Below, in pieces: positions 1 to 9,699 of a stretch of DNA of 64,000 nucleotides. Within the stretch, counting starts at the first letter, position 1, and every line of letters begins with the position of its first letter. Below the pieces are notes generated by a model that saw only the letters and a list, made by a program, of their open reading frames with translations, searched no databases and was not told where the DNA came from. Source of the stretch: Parcubacteria group bacterium LiPW_15 (GTDB taxonomy: Bacteria; Patescibacteriota; Minisyncoccia; UBA6257; 2-01-FULL-56-20); contig VMER01000001.1 in assembly GCA_007375645.1 (NCBI GenBank), forward strand, positions 134,256-198,255, in the 5' to 3' direction. The position numbers and the translations under genes were made by a program.

Positions 1-996
1 GAACTCGCGGTCTTTAAAAAAGTTATTGACGGTTCGCTCTCCCATGGAAGCGTCGGTGTTTCTTTCGGACTCGAATATTCTCACGGGAAGGGAACGCCGT
101 TCAAAGAAATAAAGATGCTCGCGGATTGCGTGGCCAAAGCCAACGGGGTCTGCGCCGTGCATTTGAGGAAACGCGACAAAGAGATCGCGGAAGCGTTTGA
201 AGAGGCGAAAGCGCTCGCGGAAACCACGAAGGTTAAAGTGCTGGTCAGCCACTTTTCTCCGATGATCGGAGCGGAATCGGAATACGAAAAAGTGCTCTCC
301 GAGCTCTACGATATTCCGGCGGAAACGGAACTTTATCTTACCGCCAGGCCATTTGAAGAAAATATCGTGCCGATCTATTTTATGCTTCCCGGCTGGGCGC
401 AAAAAGGGAGCTTGGAAGAAATGCTCGCTTCCGTGAAAGACGAGTGGCTGTCTTCAAGGGTCATGAAAGATATTCCGCAGCTGGACCCGGAAAAAGTCCG
501 GGTGCTCAAGGCGGTCAAGAATGAGAGCCTTGAAGGGAAAAGCATTAAGGAGCTCATGGAAATTTTCGGACTTAGCACTTTCGCCGAAACTCTGCGCAAG
601 GTTATGATCACAACCGGTTTGCGCGCCACGGTGACTTTGGGAGAATTGGATCCGAAACTTTTGATCGCTACCTGGAAGAATCCGCGCACAATGGTCGGAA
701 CTTTCGCTCCCAAGGCGATGTCCTCCAATTCCACACTCATGCATTTCTTGGGAAGGATCGAAAAAGAAGAATTGCTTTCTCTCGAGGACGCGGTTTGGAA
801 AGTTTCCGGTTTTCCCGCAAAAGTTTTCGGCTTTAAAGGCAGGGGGAGGGTTGGCGAAGGATATTTTGCGGATCTAACCGTATTCAAAAATGGAGAAGTA
901 AAATTCACCATCCTGGGCGGAAATCTGGCTTATCGGCCCGGAGAGAAAGCCGGACTCTTCGGAGAACCAAAATTGCATACGAAAAATGGCTTTTAG
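1..996 (+). CDS. Amidohydrolase-family protein (N-acyl-D-amino-acid deacylase-like), 5'-truncated by the window edge
   Basis: The frame is open from base 1 with no stop upstream of the M at 115. The C-terminal region resembles D-aminoacylase family proteins. Confidence 0.55.
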   Translation, partial: ELAVFKKVIDGSLSHGSVGVSFGLEYSHGKGTPFKEIKMLADCVAKANGVCAVHLRKRDKEIAEAFEEAKALAETTKVKVLVSHFSPMIGAESEYEKVLSELYDIPAETELYLTARPFEENIVPIYFMLPGWAQKGSLEEMLASVKDEWLSSRVMKDIPQLDPEKVRVLKAVKNESLEGKSIKELMEIFGLSTFAETLRKVMITTGLRATVTLGELDPKLLIATWKNPRTMVGTFAPKAMSSNSTLMHFLGRIEKEELLSLEDAVWKVSGFPAKVFGFKGRGRVGEGYFADLTVFKNGEVKFTILGGNLAYRPGEKAGLFGEPKLHTKNGF

Positions 997-2095
997 AGGG
1001 ATCAAGTCCGGACGAAAACCGGACATATTTTTAATGGCGCTTTTGGCCCTCCTTGTCTTGGGCGGATTGTTCATTCTGGCCAGCGCGTCATCGGAGCTCG
1101 GGCGCATAAAGTTCGGCGACAGTTATTATTATTTAAAACATCAGGCCGTTTACGGGCTTCTGCCGGGAGTTATCGGATTTCTGATTTGTTTTTTTCTGTC
1201 GTACCAGAATTTAAAAAAGCTGGCCTTTCCGCTTTTCATTTTTAACCTCGCCCTGCTGACCCTCGTATTCACTAAGTTCGGCCTCTCAAGCGGGGGAGCG
1301 AGCCGTTGGCTGCAATTGGGGCCTATTTCCTTCCAACCCGCTGAATTGTTGAAATTGTCTTTTATCATCTATATTTCCGCCTGGGTTGGAGGCCAGGCTA
1401 AGCGCACCGCCAGTTTTTTGGGCGGTTTTTTACCGTTCCTTGTGGCCTCGGGAATAATGGCCGGAATGTTGTTCTTACAGCCGGCAACGAGCACGGTAGT
1501 GATCCTTCTTGCTTCCGGCGGAATGGTTTATTTCTTGAGCGGGGCGGAATGGAAATATATTTTTATGGCCGCCGGGTTGATCGTCGTAATTTTGGGTTCG
1601 CTCATATATTTCACGCCCTACAGAATGAAAAGAATCGTGGGATTTTTGGATAAATCGTCTAATACTCAAACCATAAACTATCACGTGAATCAGGCGCTTA
1701 TCGCGATAGGCTCGGGAGGAGCTTTCGGAATGGGTTACGGGAAATCCACCGCAAAAGTAAATTATCTGCCGGCGGTCATTGATGATTCCATTTTTGCCGT
1801 AGTCGGCCAGGAATTGGGATTCCTCGGCACCGGGCTCATCACAATTCTTTTCGGTATGCTGGTTTTCCGTTTGTTCTGGCTCGCAAAAAAAACTCGCGAT
1901 AAGTTCGGCAGGAACATGCTCGTAGGCTTCGGTTCCATTATCGCTCTTCAGTCCCTGGTTAATATGGGCGCAATCTCCGGAATTCTACCGCTCACCGGCG
2001 TACCTCTTCCGTTCATAAGCTACGGAGGCACGGCGCTCGCGATATTTATGACCATGGGCGGCATTTCGCTCAACATTTCCAAATATACGGGGTAA
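986..2095 (+). CDS. ftsW: SEDS-family peptidoglycan glycosyltransferase FtsW
   Basis: 369-aa polytopic membrane protein with the FtsW/RodA signature region GGT.L..F.SYGG, sitting immediately upstream of murG. Confidence 0.85.
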   Translation: MAFRGIKSGRKPDIFLMALLALLVLGGLFILASASSELGRIKFGDSYYYLKHQAVYGLLPGVIGFLICFFLSYQNLKKLAFPLFIFNLALLTLVFTKFGLSSGGASRWLQLGPISFQPAELLKLSFIIYISAWVGGQAKRTASFLGGFLPFLVASGIMAGMLFLQPATSTVVILLASGGMVYFLSGAEWKYIFMAAGLIVVILGSLIYFTPYRMKRIVGFLDKSSNTQTINYHVNQALIAIGSGGAFGMGYGKSTAKVNYLPAVIDDSIFAVVGQELGFLGTGLITILFGMLVFRLFWLAKKTRDKFGRNMLVGFGSIIALQSLVNMGAISGILPLTGVPLPFISYGGTALAIFMTMGGISLNISKYTG

Positions 2096-2105
2096 ACTTA
2101 AGTAA

Positions 2106-3254
2106 ATGACAAAGGTCAAAAAATATAAAATTGTTCTCGCGGGCGGAGGAACCGGCGGACACATCTACCCGCTTCTTGCCGTGGCCGAAGAATTAAGGGG
2201 TGTTTTTGAAAAGAACGGATATCTTTTGGAACTGCATTTTGTGGGAACCCCGGGCAAATTCGAAGACGAGATAAAAGCCGCGGGAATTAAAATACATAAA
2301 ATACTCGCCGGAAAATTCAGAAGATATTTATCTTTCGGATACTTAATAGACATCCCGAAAATATTTATCGGCCTCATTCAAGCGTTTTTAAAGATCTACG
2401 CCATCATGCCCGATGAAGTTTTTTCGAAAGGCGGTCCGGGCGCGTTTCAAACGGTTCTTGCCGCCAAGTTCTATATGATACCGGTTATGATCCACGAGTC
2501 CGACGCTTATCCGGGACTTACCAACTTGCTCTCGGCCCGTTTTGCGAAAAAGATCGCGATAAGTTTTCCTAATGTGGCGAAATATTTTAACCCGGCCAAA
2601 ACCATCTTAACCGGAAATCCGCTCCGTCCTTCGCTTTTACGCCAGCGGTTGGAATCCGGAGCCGCGAAGGAGGCCCTCGGTTTTTCATCCGCTTCGCCGC
2701 TTGTTCTTATACTCGGCGGTTCGCAGGGTTCGGAACGCGTAAATGACTTTATAATATCCGTTTTGAAAAATGTGATAATTGACGCGCAAATTTTGCATCA
2801 AACCGGCGCGGCCAATTACGAGCTTGTCCAAAAAGCGGCCCAGGCCACGCTTGTGGATGTGGCGGTTTCCGCGGAAGCGAAAAATCGTTATAAGGCGGTT
2901 TCGTTTCTCGTGGGAAAAGAAATGGCTTACGCGCTTTCGGCGGCGGATGTGGTGATCGGCCGCGCGGGAAGCGGAACTATTTTTGAGATCGCCGCATTCG
3001 GCAAACCTTCGATCCTTATCCCGCTTCCGGAAGCTGCGGGCGACCATCAAAGAGAAAATGCTTATGCTTACGCCCAGACCGGCGCCGCGTATGTCACGGA
3101 GGAGTCTAATTTTTCGCCCAATATTTTGCTTTCGGGGATAAAGAGGCTAACCGGCGGGGGAGATCTCCCAAAGGCTATGGCAGAGGCAGCTCTAAAATTC
3201 GCTAAACCACAGGCCGCCGAGGCAATTGCGGCAGAAGTCTTCAAGCTTGCTTAG
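2106..3254 (+). CDS. murG: UDP-N-acetylglucosamine--N-acetylmuramyl-(pentapeptide) pyrophosphoryl-undecaprenol N-acetylglucosamine transferase MurG
   Basis: N-terminal GGGTGGHIYP motif, GT28 fold and length, and ftsW-murG synteny. Confidence 0.9.
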   Translation: MTKVKKYKIVLAGGGTGGHIYPLLAVAEELRGVFEKNGYLLELHFVGTPGKFEDEIKAAGIKIHKILAGKFRRYLSFGYLIDIPKIFIGLIQAFLKIYAIMPDEVFSKGGPGAFQTVLAAKFYMIPVMIHESDAYPGLTNLLSARFAKKIAISFPNVAKYFNPAKTILTGNPLRPSLLRQRLESGAAKEALGFSSASPLVLILGGSQGSERVNDFIISVLKNVIIDAQILHQTGAANYELVQKAAQATLVDVAVSAEAKNRYKAVSFLVGKEMAYALSAADVVIGRAGSGTIFEIAAFGKPSILIPLPEAAGDHQRENAYAYAQTGAAYVTEESNFSPNILLSGIKRLTGGGDLPKAMAEAALKFAKPQAAEAIAAEVFKLA

Positions 3255-3327
3255 GGCCTCTTGGCGGGCCATTTTGGGGCACAAAAGGGCTATTTAAAGG
3301 CCTAAATCGGCATGTTATACTCCAAAT

Positions 3328-4767
3328 ATGGAGCCGAAAGCATCAAAATCGGTCCGGGTTCGGTTTGCCCCGAGCCCCACAGGTCCCTTCCATTTGGGAA
3401 GTGCCCGAGCTGCGCTTTTCAATTGGATCTATGCCCGTCAACAGAACGGTGTTTTTGTCTTGCGCATTGAGGATACCGACAAAGAACGTTCCAAAAAGGA
3501 GCATGAAGACGGGATCTTGGAATCCTTGCGCTGGCTTGGTCTTGATTGGGACGAAGGACCGGATGTCGGCGGAGAATACGGACCGTATCGCCAGAGCGAA
3601 CGAGAACCTATCTACGAAAAATATCTGAAGGAGCTTTTGGAAGCCGGAAAGGCGTATTACTGTTATTGCACCAAAGAAGAACTTGAGGCGCAAAAAGAAG
3701 CGATGATCGCCCAAGGTCTTCCGCCGAAATACAGCGGCCGTTGCCGGAACCTGGAATCGGCGCCCACCGATCGCAAACCGGAACTTATCCGCTTCAAAAC
3801 TCCGGAAGTCAAAGTAGAGTTCAAAGATATGATCCGCGGAAGCATGAGTTTTGACGCATCCTTATTCGGAGATATTCCGATAGCCAAAGATCTTCGTTCT
3901 CCGCTCTATAACTTCGCGGTGGTCATCGACGACGAGCTTATGAAGATAACCCACGTTATCAGGGGCGAAGATCATCTCTCGAATACTCCGAAACAGATCC
4001 TGTTCGGGAAAGCTTTGGGTTTCTCGGAGCCGACATTCGCTCATCTGCCGCTCATTCTTTCTGCCGACCGAAGCAAGCTTTCCAAGCGCTACGCAGAAAC
4101 TTCGCTTATTGAATATGAGAAACAAGGCTATCTTCCGGAAGCAATGGTCAATTTTCTCGTTCTTTTAGGATGGCATCCTAAGGGCGATCGCGAAGTATTT
4201 AAGGTTTCGGAGCTCATTGAAACCTTTGATCTAAAGCGCGTTCAAAAAGCCGGAGCTATCTGGAACGAAGAAAAACTTTCTTGGTTGAACAGCGAACACA
4301 TCCGCTCCATGGACACGGAAAAGCTAACCGCGCTGCTTAAGCCTTTTGTGATCGAGAAGTTTCCCGAAGCGGACGAAAAATTCCTTTTTAAGGTGGTAGC
4401 TGTGCAAAAAGACCGGCTTCGGACGCTTAAAGAATTCGCGGACATCGCCGGATTCTTCTTTGAGTTGCCGGCTTACGAATGGGGATTGCTTGTTTGGAAT
4501 AAAGAACCGCAGGAGAAGATAAAAGAATCTCTTCTCGCTACAGAAGAAGCTTTTAAAAATATTCCGGACGGCGAATTTACCAAAGAAAAAATAACCGACA
4601 GCCTAGCCTCTCTTGCCGAAGGTTTGGGCAGGGGAGTGGTCTTCTGGCCGCTGCGGGTATCCCTTTCCGGACAAAAAGCCTCACCGGACCCCGTGTCTAT
4701 CGCTGAAACTTTAGGCAAAGAAGAATCGCTTCGGCGCATTGAAAAAGCAATTAAAAAACTTCCGTAA
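3328..4767 (+). CDS. gltX: Glutamyl-tRNA synthetase
   Basis: Class I HIGH-type motif (HLGSARAALFNW) and a KLSKR motif, at the length expected for a GluRS. Confidence 0.9.
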   Translation: MEPKASKSVRVRFAPSPTGPFHLGSARAALFNWIYARQQNGVFVLRIEDTDKERSKKEHEDGILESLRWLGLDWDEGPDVGGEYGPYRQSEREPIYEKYLKELLEAGKAYYCYCTKEELEAQKEAMIAQGLPPKYSGRCRNLESAPTDRKPELIRFKTPEVKVEFKDMIRGSMSFDASLFGDIPIAKDLRSPLYNFAVVIDDELMKITHVIRGEDHLSNTPKQILFGKALGFSEPTFAHLPLILSADRSKLSKRYAETSLIEYEKQGYLPEAMVNFLVLLGWHPKGDREVFKVSELIETFDLKRVQKAGAIWNEEKLSWLNSEHIRSMDTEKLTALLKPFVIEKFPEADEKFLFKVVAVQKDRLRTLKEFADIAGFFFELPAYEWGLLVWNKEPQEKIKESLLATEEAFKNIPDGEFTKEKITDSLASLAEGLGRGVVFWPLRVSLSGQKASPDPVSIAETLGKEESLRRIEKAIKKLP

Positions 4768-4774
4768 GACCACG

Positions 4775-6067
4775 ATGACAGATCTTTTAAAAAAGACCTT
4801 TTCCGTAATTTCGACCCTCATAATTATTATGGGGCCGTCTAATTCTTTGGGCGCAACAACCGCGCCGCAGACGCGGGAAGAATTGGAACAGCAGATAAAA
4901 GACAGGTCCAAACAGCTGGAGACCTTGAATCAGGCTATCCAGACCACTCAAAATACCCTGAAAGACGTTCAGGGCCAGAAAACCACGCTTCAAAAGGAAG
5001 TTAAAACCCTAGATACCTCGCTCAAACAATTGGATTTGAGCATTCAATCCGACCGGGTAAACGCGCAAAAAATAAATTACCAGATCGATTCCATCGACAT
5101 GGATATCGAGGATATCGAGGCTTCCGTGCTGCAAAAAAACAGTTCTATTTCGGATCTTTTCCGCGAGCTTCAGAGGAATCAGGATAAAAATACGCTGATG
5201 ATATTTTTGGAAAACAAGACTATCAGCGAAGGTCTTTTGGCAACAAAATCTTTGGAGGATATACGTTCTCAGCTCGCGGTGGATATCCAATCGCTTAAGG
5301 AGTTGAAGGATCAATATCGGCAAAAAATGGAAGATCTTAGCGTCAAACACAAAGAGCTGGTCTATCATGAAGAAAATTTGAAGAATCGCAAACAAATAAC
5401 CGAAGAAACGAAGCAGGAAAGAGCCACGCTTTTGAGCCAGACCAAAGAGAAAGAAAGTGTTTATCAAAAACAGTTGGCCGATCTGAAAAAACTTCAGGAA
5501 GATATCGCGAATGAAATGGAGGCGATGGACGCCCAGCTCCGAAGCAAAGTTGATCCGAAGTTCTTGCCGCCGCTAAGTTCAGGAGTGCTGGGCTATCCCA
5601 TTCAGGGAGATAAAAGCGATATGACTCAGAGCTATGGAGCAACGGCCTTCGCAAAATATGGATATAAGGGTAAGTGGCATAACGGTATAGATTTCGGCGT
5701 ACCCATTGGAACTCCGATATTTGCCGCGGAGACAGGAATCATTCTTGCGACCGGGAATCAGGACTCATTCTGCTACAAAGGCGCATATGGAAAATTTGTT
5801 TTGATAAAGCACGAAAATAATTTAACGAGCCTTTACGGCCATCTTTCCAAATACATAGTTTCGCCCGGACAGAAAGTTGAGCGGGGACAGGTCATCGGTT
5901 ATTCCGGAAAAACCGGTTACGCGACCGGACCGCATTTACATTTCTCGGTTTTTGCCACGCCGACTATTCCGCCTGCCACCGGCAAATATCCGGAAGGAAT
6001 CAGCCCCTCCAAAAGCTGCGGCCCGATGCCATACGGCGGCGACTTGAATCCGTTGGGTTATCTCTAA
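4775..6067 (+). CDS. M23-family metallopeptidase with N-terminal signal peptide and long coiled-coil (EnvC-like murein hydrolase)
   Basis: C-terminal LytM/M23 motifs HxxxD and HLHF, with an N-terminal coiled coil. An alternative upstream start at 4739 is possible. Confidence 0.8.
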   Translation: MTDLLKKTFSVISTLIIIMGPSNSLGATTAPQTREELEQQIKDRSKQLETLNQAIQTTQNTLKDVQGQKTTLQKEVKTLDTSLKQLDLSIQSDRVNAQKINYQIDSIDMDIEDIEASVLQKNSSISDLFRELQRNQDKNTLMIFLENKTISEGLLATKSLEDIRSQLAVDIQSLKELKDQYRQKMEDLSVKHKELVYHEENLKNRKQITEETKQERATLLSQTKEKESVYQKQLADLKKLQEDIANEMEAMDAQLRSKVDPKFLPPLSSGVLGYPIQGDKSDMTQSYGATAFAKYGYKGKWHNGIDFGVPIGTPIFAAETGIILATGNQDSFCYKGAYGKFVLIKHENNLTSLYGHLSKYIVSPGQKVERGQVIGYSGKTGYATGPHLHFSVFATPTIPPATGKYPEGISPSKSCGPMPYGGDLNPLGYL

Positions 6068-6071
6068 AAAG

Positions 6072-6404
6072 ATGAAAGGAAAAATAATCCAAACTTTTGT
6101 CATAATTCTCGTCGCGCTCGCGGTCATCTATCTTTTTCAAAAAGAAATTTTGAATCTTCTTGGAAATGTGAGCGAGAGCGGCTTTAAAAATTATCTGGAA
6201 AGGGGAATCGCATTTTTGGCCGATCTGTTTGCCAGGTTGTTCGCTATCATTAAGTCGATCTTCTCCTTCTTTGCCGGAATAGTTTTAAAGATAATCGGTA
6301 ACGCTACCGAGTTATTTAAGCTCATAGACGGCATTTTGTGGGTCCTGGGTAAACTTTTTGCCCTTATTAAGGCCTTCTTTGGGTTCATTGCCGGCCTGGT
6401 TTAG
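6072..6404 (+). CDS. Small hypothetical membrane protein with internal repeats
   Basis: 110 aa, hydrophobic, with repeated LF..I..F.F.AG-type segments. Confidence 0.45.
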   Translation: MKGKIIQTFVIILVALAVIYLFQKEILNLLGNVSESGFKNYLERGIAFLADLFARLFAIIKSIFSFFAGIVLKIIGNATELFKLIDGILWVLGKLFALIKAFFGFIAGLV

Positions 6405-6419
6405 AGATAGGTTCCGGTT

Positions 6420-6640
6420 CAGAACCTTGTCGCGCCCAGATCCGCATTTAATTAAACTTCTGTCGTATAACGAACGGATAGAGTGTGTTGTTGCGATAAC
6501 TATTGAGTATAGTGTCGCAAAACCGGATTTCGCGACAGATTATTAAGCAACCCCATCTGTCGCTAAATCCGGTGACCTTGTTGCGACATATACATATGTC
6601 GCAAAAGGTATATTGTGCGACAGGTAGTATTGTAAAAAAG
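6420..6640. promoter_or_regulatory. Array of TGTCGC/GCGACA inverted-repeat motifs, including a perfect 22-bp palindrome TGCGACATATACATATGTCGCA (6582-6603) and the inverted repeat TGTCGC-n13-GCGACA (6513-6537)
   Basis: Read directly from the sequence. About nine half-sites fall within about 200 bp of AT-rich non-coding DNA. Confidence 0.4.
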
Positions 6641-6678
6641 CCAGCAGAATGGACAATCCTCTGCTGGTTTTGGCACGT

Positions 6679-6876
6679 CTACTTGATGGGCGCCGGTTCG
6701 TACGGGTGTCGGCGTGGCTTGGACGACGTCTTTGCCCGCCGCGTGGCTCTTTCTCGGGCAGCAACGATCTTCTTTGCGAGGCGCTGAAGTTCTTTCCTAT
6801 TCCAGTTGAGCGCCCGGATATCCTTCTTCGAAAGCTTTACGAGATACATTCCGTTGCCGAGCGATATCTTTTGCAC
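6679..6876 (-). CDS. Hypothetical small basic protein (GC-rich cassette 1)
   Basis: 65-aa ORF with a GTG start and a GAAGGAGG Shine-Dalgarno. A TTGGAC-17-TATACA promoter lies upstream, and the composition is GC-richer than the flanks. Confidence 0.45.
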   Translation of the reverse strand: MQKISLGNGMYLVKLSKKDIRALNWNRKELQRLAKKIVAARERATRRAKTSSKPRRHPYEPAPIK

Positions 6877-6960: not shown

Positions 6961-8310
6961 TTGAATCTCGTGGCCAAGCAACATATTCATTTTGTCGGCA
7001 TCGGCGGTATTGGGATGAGCGCGCTAGCCCGTTATTACTTGGCTCAAAATTGGGCTGTTTTCGGGTCCGACGTGGAAAAAAGCATAATTACCTCGGATCT
7101 TATAAAAGACGGCATATCGGTCAAAATCGGGCAGAAAAAGGAGAACATATCCCCTATCTTTGACCGTATCATCAAGAGTCAGGCGGTACAGGAGACCAAC
7201 CCGGAGATCTTAGAGGCAAGGAGGCTTGGACTTAAAGTTTTTTCTTATCCGGAGGCTGTCGGCGAGCTGACTAAAGATATTAAAACGATTGCCATTGCCG
7301 GCGCGCACGGCAAAAGCACGACTACGGCGATGATCGCCAAAATTTTGGTTGATGCCAAATTGGACCCAATGGTCATTTTGGGAGCGAAGTTTGATTTTTT
7401 TGACGGAAGAAACTTTCGCCTTGGAAAGAATTATTTGGTTTTGGAAGCGGACGAGTTCGGCCGGGCATTTTTGAATTATTACCCCACGCACACGGTTATT
7501 TTGAATATCGACAGAGAGCATTTGGATATTTATAGCGGCCTTAAGGACATTAAAGACACCTTTCTGCGTTTCATCTCTCAAACCAAACCGGGCGGTATTC
7601 TTATTTTGAACCGGGACGACAAAAATATTTTCTCGCTTAAAAATAAAATAGAAAAAATAGCCCTAAAAAATAAACTCAAAATTATCTGGTTCTCTTACTC
7701 CGACAAAATTCAGGCGGAAATATTCGGCGCGCTCCCTATTCCCGGGCGGCAGAACCGAACGGATGCGATCGCCGCTTATAATCTGGCATTGAGCCTTAAG
7801 GTGTCCAAAAAGAAGATATTAGAGTCCCTCTCCGGATATCCCGGCCTCTGGCGGCGAATGGAGCATAAAGGACCGGCTTTCGACGGTCGAGCGACGGTTT
7901 TCGACGATTATGCCCATCATCCTTCGGAAATTAAAGCCACCCTTTCCGCGTTCCGTGAAAAATACCCCGACTCCCCTATCCTTTGTGTTTTTAAACCGCA
8001 CCAGGCGAGCCGCCTTAAAATTTTGTTTAGGGATTTCTTAAATTCATTTTCCGCGGCCGATAAAATAATTATTCTCCCAACTTATATTGTTTTGGGCCGG
8101 GACATAGACGAGAAGGTTTTAACTGCGAAAAAATTGGCTGAAGACTTAGCCAAAAAATATCCGACGAAAAAGATCGTGTATCTTTCCGACTCCGATAAGC
8201 TTAAATCAACCCTGTATTCTCTTTTGTCTGCCGCGAATCCAAAGCCATCAGTTATCATTATGATGGGCGCTGGTTCGATAGCGAATCTTACAAAAAGCAT
8301 TTTGAACTGA
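6961..8310 (+). CDS. murC: UDP-N-acetylmuramate--L-alanine ligase MurC
   Basis: N-terminal IHFVGIGGIGMS motif and Mur ligase central and C-terminal domains. The start is TTG at 6961 or GTG at 6970, and no clear Shine-Dalgarno precedes it. Confidence 0.9.
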   Translation: MNLVAKQHIHFVGIGGIGMSALARYYLAQNWAVFGSDVEKSIITSDLIKDGISVKIGQKKENISPIFDRIIKSQAVQETNPEILEARRLGLKVFSYPEAVGELTKDIKTIAIAGAHGKSTTTAMIAKILVDAKLDPMVILGAKFDFFDGRNFRLGKNYLVLEADEFGRAFLNYYPTHTVILNIDREHLDIYSGLKDIKDTFLRFISQTKPGGILILNRDDKNIFSLKNKIEKIALKNKLKIIWFSYSDKIQAEIFGALPIPGRQNRTDAIAAYNLALSLKVSKKKILESLSGYPGLWRRMEHKGPAFDGRATVFDDYAHHPSEIKATLSAFREKYPDSPILCVFKPHQASRLKILFRDFLNSFSAADKIIILPTYIVLGRDIDEKVLTAKKLAEDLAKKYPTKKIVYLSDSDKLKSTLYSLLSAANPKPSVIIMMGAGSIANLTKSILN

Positions 8311-9087: not shown

Positions 9088-9095
9088 AATGAAAA

Positions 9096-9113
9096 CCTCG
9101 CCGGATGGCGAGG
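9096..9113. terminator. Bidirectional hairpin terminator
   Basis: Hairpin CCTCGCC-GGAT-GGCGAGG with an A-run before it and a T-rich run after it. It lies between convergent genes. Confidence 0.55.
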
Positions 9114-9140
9114 CTGTTTGCTCTCTGAAGAACTGGTTGG

Positions 9141-9383
9141 TCAACAACCGACCTGGGGGTAGGACTCTTCCCCTTTGGGCGGATCGACAGCGGCCACCTT
9201 GCTTCGGATGATCCCCCCGACGATTCCGAAGATGTGCGGGTTCTCGAGAAACATCTCGCCGGCCGCTTCGACCTCGGTGCCTCGTTGCGGGCCAGACAAG
9301 GTGGTGCCGTTCACGTAGACGCTCATTGTGAAGCGGGAAGTGCCGTTCTGACCTTCGGATTCCGTGATTCGAACGCTGGCCAT
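9141..9383 (-). CDS. Hypothetical protein (GC-rich cassette 2)
   Basis: 80-aa ORF with an AAGGAG Shine-Dalgarno. A TTGACT-17-TATGTT promoter lies upstream, and GC is higher than the flanks. Confidence 0.45.
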   Translation of the reverse strand: MASVRITESEGQNGTSRFTMSVYVNGTTLSGPQRGTEVEAAGEMFLENPHIFGIVGGIIRSKVAAVDPPKGEESYPQVGC

Positions 9384-9416
9384 CGATATCTCCTTTCCGA
9401 TTTGGGGCTGTCGAAA

Positions 9417-9445
9417 AACATACAGTGACTCCCCTCCCGAGTCAA
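9417..9445 (-). promoter_or_regulatory. Sigma70-like promoter for cassette 2
   Basis: Minus-strand TTGACT, a 17-bp spacer, then TATGTT. Confidence 0.4.
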
Positions 9446-9455
9446 GAAGGATCGC

Positions 9456-9638
9456 CTATTGCAGTCCTGCGGTCGTAGAGCACTTCTCGATTATTATCGG
9501 AGCCCGTGAATCTTTTTTTCCGTAAAGCTCTCCGATATAGAAGCTCAAGGCGAGGGCCAGAACAGCCAGAATGGCCCAAAAGACCATATGTTTATTGGCT
9601 AAAGTCTTCTCACTCCCCTCTCCCATGAACATTGACAT
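9456..9638 (-). CDS. Small hypothetical membrane protein
   Basis: 60-aa ORF with one predicted TM helix. Support is weak. Confidence 0.25.
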   Translation of the reverse strand: MSMFMGEGSEKTLANKHMVFWAILAVLALALSFYIGELYGKKDSRAPIIIEKCSTTAGLQ

Positions 9639-9699
9639 GATATTAACTATAGCATAGAATAGATACTCGTTAGCGCTGTAAACAATTATTTAAACAAAT

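Follow-up and report, generated by a model that had tools for sequence, protein, structure and literature searches.

A candidate chromosomal dif site adjoined by degenerate copies of its own arms in the Parcubacteria bacterium LiPW_15

The Xer family of tyrosine recombinases requires a central region of 6-8 bp in its sites. In streptococci, xerS adjoins difSL. The plasmid sites cer and psi have accessory sequences of ~180 bp beside the XerC arm, and this accessory DNA binds PepA together with ArgR or ArcA and is not built of Xer-arm repeats. In the pdif modules of Acinetobacter plasmids, gene-sized segments are accompanied by full 28-bp sites in alternating orientation. The dif site of E. coli, which is served by XerC-XerD with FtsK, is GGTGCGCATAATGTATATTATGTTAAAT (PMC3325230), and Kono et al. 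(2011) called dif as a unique 28-bp palindromic site at the skew shift point (PMC3025954). Prophages in oral TM7 were reported without an attachment site (PMC7739484). A described dif for the phylum did not emerge from our literature search, in which dif was combined with Patescibacteria, CPR or Saccharibacteria, and a full-text search for the motif analyzed below returned one unrelated primer.

Here, we analyzed a repeat cluster in a 64-kb (64,000-nt) stretch of a contig of Parcubacteria group bacterium LiPW_15; this whole stretch is called the window, and all positions refer to it unless a locus (L plus a number) is named. An earlier note on the window, made from the letters alone, had described the cluster as a dense array of TGTCGC/GCGACA half-sites and had proposed an operator, a centromere or replication iterons. 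We propose that positions 6596-6623 are the chromosomal dif site of this Parcubacteria, to which we assign a probability of about 0.8, judging from the anatomy of the site, its likeness to canonical dif, its single occurrence per contig among the matches listed, its location at the terminus, the Xer genes near it in relatives, and integration footprints. The array as a whole would very probably consist of this dif site and lineage-specific, degenerate copies of dif arms (6428-6591) that are hairpin-paired with each other and with the true left arm. As in the dif/Xer family at large, Xer-type tyrosine recombinases would bind the two 11-bp arms, and strand exchange across the 6-bp centre would resolve chromosome dimers at the replication terminus.

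The repeat cluster and its 28-bp core

The window contains 33 exact copies of TGTCGC/GCGACA, 7 of which fall within 6428-6622 (Table 1). Given the other 26 hits, 0.08 hexamers were expected per 195 bp, so that the Poisson probability of at least 7 was 3.7e-12, and in the rest of the 64 kb the hexamer occurred at the chance rate (26 observed vs 24 expected). The density claimed for the array was borne out, and its "some nine" motif copies correspond to seven exact and two degenerate ones. The pairs TGTCGC-n13-GCGACA (6513-6537) and TGTCGC-n18-TGCGACA (6558-6588) were both present as described. What had been called a perfect 22-bp palindrome at 6582-6603 proved to be a perfect 11-nt inverted repeat (6581-6591 / 6594-6604), but its 2-nt centre, AC, is not self-complementary. 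The region was rightly taken as non-coding; the non-coding segment, 6405-6678, is flanked by ORFs of 110 and 65 aa. On the other hand, the array does not lie directly upstream of murC, because the 65-aa ORF intervenes.

Table 1. Features of the locus in the window, and of related loci where a locus is named
Feature	Position	Strand	Remarks
Membrane ORF, 110 aa	6072-6404	+	
Exact TGTCGC	6428, 6513, 6558, 6597	+	sequence read at 6420-6640
Exact GCGACA (TGTCGC on the opposite strand)	6532, 6583, 6617	-	sequence read at 6420-6640
Degenerate copies	6461 (TGTCGT), 6491 (TTGCGAT)		sequence read at 6420-6640
Outlying TGTCGC hexamer	6428-6433	+	no partner arm
Left-arm-like CTGTCGTATAA	6460-6470	+	9/11
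Hairpin H2	6491-6520	+	predicted folds
Pseudo-dif A, GTGTCGCAAAA-CCGGA-TTTCGCGACAG	6512-6538	+	5-nt centre vs 6; arms 10/11 (+, 6512) and 9/11 (-, 6528)
Hairpin H3, 19-nt inverted repeat 6522-6540 / 6555-6573	6522-6573	+	14-nt loop; 95% complementary; folds
Pseudo-dif B, left-arm-like CTGTCGCTAAA (6557-6567) and inverted arm TGTTGCGACAT (6579-6589)	6557-6589	+	11-nt centre; arms 9/11 and 10/11
Hairpin H4, inverted left-arm copy and start of central region	6575-6591	+	pairs with 6594-6609; contains the "22-bp palindrome"
Candidate dif core, 28 bp, ATGTCGCAAAA-GGTATA-TTGTGCGACAG	6596-6623	+	last inverted pair of the cluster
Left arm of candidate dif	6596-6606	+	aligns with XerC-side arm of E. 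coli dif (putative assignment)
Central region, 6 bp, GGTATA	6607-6612	+	
Right arm of candidate dif, TTGTGCGACAG	6613-6623	+	
Terminator-like hairpin	6637-6671		T-run on - strand (end of 65-aa ORF), weaker one on + strand
Basic ORF, 65 aa, between candidate dif and murC	6679-6876	-	presence varies among relatives
murC	6961-8310		
XerC/D-type recombinase genes	L115 829-1765	-	also L049, L078, L015, L103, L108, L085, L072, L021
Inovirus-like elements, 5.2-5.5 kb	L151 2195-7631		also L149, L166, L161, L164, L141, L101; full site left, hybrid site right

The last inverted pair of the cluster has the anatomy of a dif site, i.e., inverted arms of ~11 bp around a centre of 6-8 bp, here as 11-6-11. 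It matched the consensus ATGTCGYAAAAGRTATATTGTGCGACRT at 27 of 28 positions, the second-best site in the 64 kb reaching 20 of 28. When the window site, ATGTCGCAAAAGGTATATTGTGCGACAG, was compared directly with the 28-bp dif of E. coli, 17 of 28 positions were identical, and the kinship was closest in the inner arms and centre (positions 5-22), where 15 of 18 agreed (CGCAAAA-GGTATA-TTGTG vs CGCATAA-TGTATA-TTATG). Specifically, the left arm reads CGCAAAA against CGCATAA in E. coli (PMC3325230), and the central region was GRTATA or TGTATA among the loci collected below, the TGTATA variants being exactly the central region of E. coli dif (PMC3325230). The outer arms differ, in that those of the window site are near-palindromic (CTGTCGCAAAA vs CTGTCGCACAA) whereas the XerC and XerD arms of E. 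coli are asymmetric. Near-palindromic arms are shared with difH/XerH of Helicobacter and difSL/XerS of streptococci, but the sequence of difH, as printed in PMC3325230, is unrelated to the site described here.

Relatives of the site, its genomic position and its occupants

Three relatives were found by MurC homology alone. The closest, L005 (MurC 80% identical), has the array whole and lacks the 65-aa ORF; L006 (60%) has retained nothing of the array but its last inverted pair, after which come a terminator hairpin and a 66-aa ORF; and L001 (47%) has kept the last pair ~30 nt before the start of murC. The window and all three carry (C/T/A)TGTCGYAAAA-NNTATA-TTGTGCGACA, and the 24-nt core is identical in the four save for three free positions, namely core position 5 (C or T) and the two bases that open the central region. 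The right arm, TTGTGCGACAG, is the same in all four, which were found independently of the pattern search described below. In L002-L004, distant relatives from the MurC search of genome contigs, the motif was absent near murC.

The 65-aa basic protein had been suggested as a binding partner of the array, and this was rejected given that L005 keeps the array without the ORF. No homologues of the ORF were detected in a large protein search or by tblastn in the compared loci, and it had no Pfam hit. The basic 66-aa ORF of L006, which is at the same position and together with its own terminator hairpin occupies 515-783, matched it weakly (pairwise E = 5e-4), KLSKK..AL....LQ.LA being common to both. 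In addition, 9 nt 3' of the right arm at 6624-6632 (AGGTAGTAT; AGGTAGGAT in L006) are conserved in the window lineage only (L005, L006, L014, L047 and L057). They exceed the general 28-bp consensus and may represent an extension of the arm or else a -10-like box that serves murC.

The pattern GTCGNAAAANNTATATTGTGCGAC was found in at least 120 metagenome stretches and in 42 IMG/VR viral contigs with unrelated flanks, and more than 160 loci with the 24-nt core were obtained by pattern search. Note that the pattern fixes 21 bases, so that invariance at these bases among the loci found with it is a selection effect and only the free positions and flanks carry information. The information profile of 153 loci read wAT-GTCGYAAAA, GRTATA and TTGTGCGAC-RYw in succession. 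Information content at the free positions and flanks was at background beyond 2-3 nt on either side, which delimits a site of ~28-30 bp with an 11-6-11 layout. Core position 5 was C in 63, T in 83 and G in 7 of the 153 loci; G at this position would make a G.G mismatch in a hairpin, and the flank positions -1 and +24 did not covary, which is the behaviour of a duplex site recognized by protein and not that of a hairpin. One exact match per contig was seen among the matches listed, including ten contigs of 0.3-1.2 Mb, a consensus scan of the 64-kb window gave one site, and no second full site was found in 1.15 Mb of locus sequence. Hosts of the core include Parcubacteria (LiPW_15), TM7, Pacebacteria and Lloydbacteria.

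In ~15 loci of one lineage (e.g., L064, L099, L141, L032, L048 and L122), a hairpin of the form AAGAYG..N10..CRTCTT was observed ~17-20 nt to the left of the site, and its stem bases appear to covary. The same lineage has a conserved right flank, GTTAAGTCTAT, and in 11 of its loci a VirD4/TrwB-like gene lies ~300 nt to the right of the site.

In nine loci, a tyrosine recombinase gene with 52-66% identity to the copy in L115 is encoded on the opposite strand, 317-1362 bp left of the site (Table 1); one of these loci was labelled Pacebacteria by its source. The L115 protein scored 141 bits with Pfam Phage_integrase, in addition to a SAM_1 domain, and ~248 bits with the NCBIfam XerC and XerD models, which is under their equivalog cut-offs. 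Its best PDB match was E. coli XerD (1a0p, 1e-39). No Xer gene was found by tblastn within the 64-kb window. The combination of a recombinase gene beside the site, within 1.4 kb in the nine loci, and near-palindromic arms recalls single-recombinase systems such as difH/XerH and difSL/XerS. The L115 recombinase, however, scored far higher with the XerC/XerD models than with that of XerS (125 bits), and it matched the XerH structure at 1e-12.

We also examined where the site lies relative to GC skew. In the window, skew was positive to ~10 kb and negative beyond, and the cumulative G-C maximum at 9163 lies 2.5 kb from the site, which places the site at a skew shift point; given that just 6.6 kb of the window lies left of the site, this maximum could be local. 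Of 47 loci whose flanks reach 2 kb or more in both directions, 20 showed a + to - change of skew across the site and 3 a - to + change. This polarity does not depend on the orientation of the site and distinguishes a terminus from an origin. As in E. coli, the site is at a GC-skew shift point. Among the matches listed it occurs once per contig, and the neighbouring recombinase in relatives' loci is closest to XerD. Of the coding bases left of the site, 83% belong to the + strand; on the right, mobile elements make for a mixed pattern, with 54% on the - strand. Within the window, the ~600 nt at 9088-9699 between a PD-(D/E)XK-like gene and rpmA had no convincing ORF and no Rfam match; this segment holds the cumulative skew maximum and a switch in gene orientation.

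The left neighbourhood was shared to an unexpected degree. Genes for an M23 peptidase, MurG, GltX and an FtsQ-like protein recur there in 20-30 loci, as does FtsW, all transcribed towards the site and across distant CPR lineages (115-6404 in the window included). Such synteny is more than expected around a dif site and counts against the dif reading; the shared genes indicate that, in many of these genomes, a cell-division/cell-wall cluster ends right beside the terminus. On the right, the neighbours differ from locus to locus, with ribosomal protein L9, a VirD4-like gene or prophages in this place and murC in only 9 loci, and they usually converge on the site.

Evidence of site-specific recombination, in the form of occupied and empty sites and of full and hybrid junctions, came from TM7 relatives only. 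Relaxed matching detected a second, hybrid site in L141, L149, L151, L161, L163 and L166, at a distance of ~5.2-5.9 kb to the right; in L101 it lay 2.2 kb away on the same side. All of these run in direct orientation, retain the centre and right arm, and differ in the left arm. The interval in L151, whose host is TM7, encodes small coat-like ORFs, a Zot-like ATPase and a rolling-circle initiator, and no integrase; the element in L149 is related to it. The DNA past the hybrid site is the chromosomal right flank that directly follows the full site in the empty loci L128, L132, L134 and L135, and L161 and L164 carry two elements in tandem. This arrangement is, by analogy, the behaviour of mobile elements that borrow the host Xer at dif. 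It resembles Vibrio cholerae dif1 with the CTX and TLC phages (IMEX using the host Xer), likewise integrase-less filamentous-phage-like elements with Zot and a rolling-circle initiator, sometimes in tandem, and bounded by one full and one hybrid site. The elements differ from these in having TM7 as hosts and only family-level similarity to known inoviruses, and none is present in the window itself, where no hybrid site, which would mark an integrated element, was found to the right of the 65-aa ORF at up to 5 mismatches.

The additional half-sites and their hairpins

Arm-like 11-mers (at least 9/11) are located at 6460, 6512, 6557 and 6596 (+ strand) and at 6528, 6579 and 6613 (- strand), and all arm-like clusters of the 64 kb are confined to 6460-6623. 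The register is 16 for 6512/6528 and 22 for 6557/6579, and 17 only at the candidate dif itself; given the central region of 6-8 bp needed by the family, the upstream pairs cannot be normal Xer substrates. The half-sites at 6428-6591, with spacings of 5, 11 or more nt, would accordingly be unfit for recombination and would instead form three strong hairpins present in few lineages. Pseudo-dif A is conserved in L005. The 19-nt inverted repeat of H3 had been missing from the repeats described previously.

Comparison with L005 showed conserved arms and diverged spacers. Nine of 35 predicted pairs were altered on both sides and still paired, with six compensatory double changes in H3 and three compensatory pair changes in H4, indicating that the palindromes have been maintained, whether through selection on their capacity to form hairpins or cruciforms or through a homogenizing process. 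The strand that matters may be RNA, as a terminator or insulator of the upstream operon, or DNA. Folding z-scores were -9.0 for + strand RNA (-107 kcal/mol), -7.1 for - strand RNA and -9.4 for single-stranded DNA; any alternating set of inverted repeats would fold in this way.

Among the sampled loci, at least three extra upstream half-sites were found only in the window, L005, L030, L080, L093, L123 and L124. The array is extra DNA, since L057, of the same lineage as the window, does not have it. Single pseudo-dif sites lie upstream in L047 and L124. In L080 (1473-1746), three tandem modules of 86 nt beside dif contain dif-like pairs in the 11-6-11 register with divergent centres, and look like a more extreme version of the array in the window. 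An inverted copy of the left arm, similar to that of H4, was present within 50 nt upstream in 19 of 147 loci, as compared with 2 of 147 in the mirror control, and in L028 and L091 the upstream inverted copy (CCGAC) tracks the rare GTCGG variant of the arm. Such copies include the first central bases, lie 3-30 nt upstream and form a hairpin with the left arm of the site (13-15 nt in L028, L078, L091 and L080).

The ~170 bp of conserved extra DNA, on the side that aligns with the XerC arm, resemble the accessory DNA of cer and psi, and this is a resemblance only. Similarly, several Xer-type sites bounding short DNA modules are reminiscent of pdif, but the modules here are 39-86 bp and non-coding, and their extra sites are defective.

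The extra half-sites were most likely born of Xer-mediated duplications or insertions at dif, with their complementarity maintained since. It is possible, although we hold it somewhat doubtful, that they are scars or miniature derivatives of Xer-integrated elements, with a hybrid pseudo-dif on the left and a restored dif on the right. Such a history would account solely for how the array arose and does not conflict with the dif explanation. Integration at the site is documented in TM7, with tandem elements and hybrid sites; the 86-nt modules of L080 preserve the 11-6-11 register; and the single upstream pseudo-dif of L047 and L124, together with the lack of an array in L057, fits such a history. 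However, the segments between the pseudo-sites in the window are just 39-52 bp and code for nothing, the TM7 elements and their hybrid sites lie to the right and not to the left of the full site, and the centre of pseudo-dif A is 5 nt and unrelated to GGTATA. In addition, the compensatory changes that keep the palindromes paired speak for selection and not for decay, and they are not explained by a scar model alone.

Alternatively, the pseudo-dif array might be a working accessory module, in which Xer-arm decoys are held as hairpins or cruciforms, or a miniature, non-autonomous element mobilized by Xer. We consider this unlikely. If true, it could halt transcription of the upstream operon before dif, or steer Xer loading or the direction of recombination; to our knowledge, an accessory module of this kind has not been described beside a chromosomal dif.

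The strong folding raised the question of whether the ~200-nt region is a structured RNA, be it a free-standing small RNA or the 3' UTR or terminator that ends the upstream 110-aa gene, with stems that would share GUCGC/GCGAC by chance. In line with this, the + strand folds well with doubly changed pairs relative to L005, the upstream genes read towards the region, there is no other terminator in 6404-6637, L005 has a + strand terminator 3' of the element, and C/T at core position 5 fits G-U pairing on the + strand. But the - strand RNA and single-stranded DNA fold nearly as well, and only the last inverted pair is common to the pattern-found loci, with three or more extra half-sites in a handful. 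The flanks of that last pair show no covariation, G.G is accepted within it, and the pair serves in recombination. Rfam searches at permissive and gathering thresholds gave chance-level hits only and two tRNAs elsewhere, and a promoter and terminator scan of the array detected neither a promoter-like site on the + strand nor a canonical terminator, the hairpins being followed by no U-tracts. Covariation across diverse relatives would be expected of a structured RNA, and it was seen only between the two closest genomes; over at least 150 loci, the flanks lacked covariation and G.G variants were present. We therefore regard an RNA as improbable.

Regulatory and replicative readings, and use of the site

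The leading proposal of the earlier note, a multi-site operator for a dimeric transcription factor, which would control murC or cell-wall genes, now appears very improbable. The inverted repeats near murC, the position of the site ~30 nt before murC in L001 and a -10-like TATATT in the central region are in its favor. An operator or regulon should show several copies upstream of promoters, but the consensus site occurs once per contig among the matches listed and mostly between converging genes, its right neighbours are variable with murC in few loci, the spacing of paired half-sites varies from 2 to 19 nt, and the site is occupied by integrated elements. A parS-type centromere or an iteron-bearing replication origin, to which a cluster of short repeats in non-coding DNA might point, has next to no chance of being correct, as the skew change is of terminus and not of origin type, the repeats alternate in orientation and do not form direct iterons, no dnaA, parA or parB is among the recurrent neighbours surveyed, and the site has the anatomy and core of dif and serves as an attachment site. 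What stands of the original proposal is the idea of inverted-repeat binding sites for a dimeric DNA-binding protein, which on present sequence evidence would serve chromosome maintenance, while the operator, the centromere and the iterons are each unsupported.

Several known repeat types were also considered. Dispersed repeats of the REP or MITE kind were rejected given the confinement of arm-like clusters and the chance-level occurrence of TGTCGC elsewhere. By reading of the sequence, an NrdR box, a LexA box, an integron attC (R''/R' cores), a GTAG-tetranucleotide REP and a degenerate CRISPR repeat were rejected because their consensus or orientation does not fit and the element is confined to a single locus.

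The dif reading makes the element an ordinary housekeeping recombination site with lineage-specific decoration. It provides a usable dif consensus for Patescibacteria/CPR, ATGTCGYAAAA-GRTATA-TTGTGCGACRT, and, as a marker of the replication terminus, the site aids assembly checks and the orientation of replichores in CPR genomes and metagenome bins. The attachment site of the integrase-less inovirus-like prophages of TM7 is likewise identified, and these elements can therefore be delimited exactly. Finally, the near-palindromic arms, together with the site-adjacent recombinase gene of some lineages, pose a testable question, namely whether a single Xer recombinase serves CPR bacteria.
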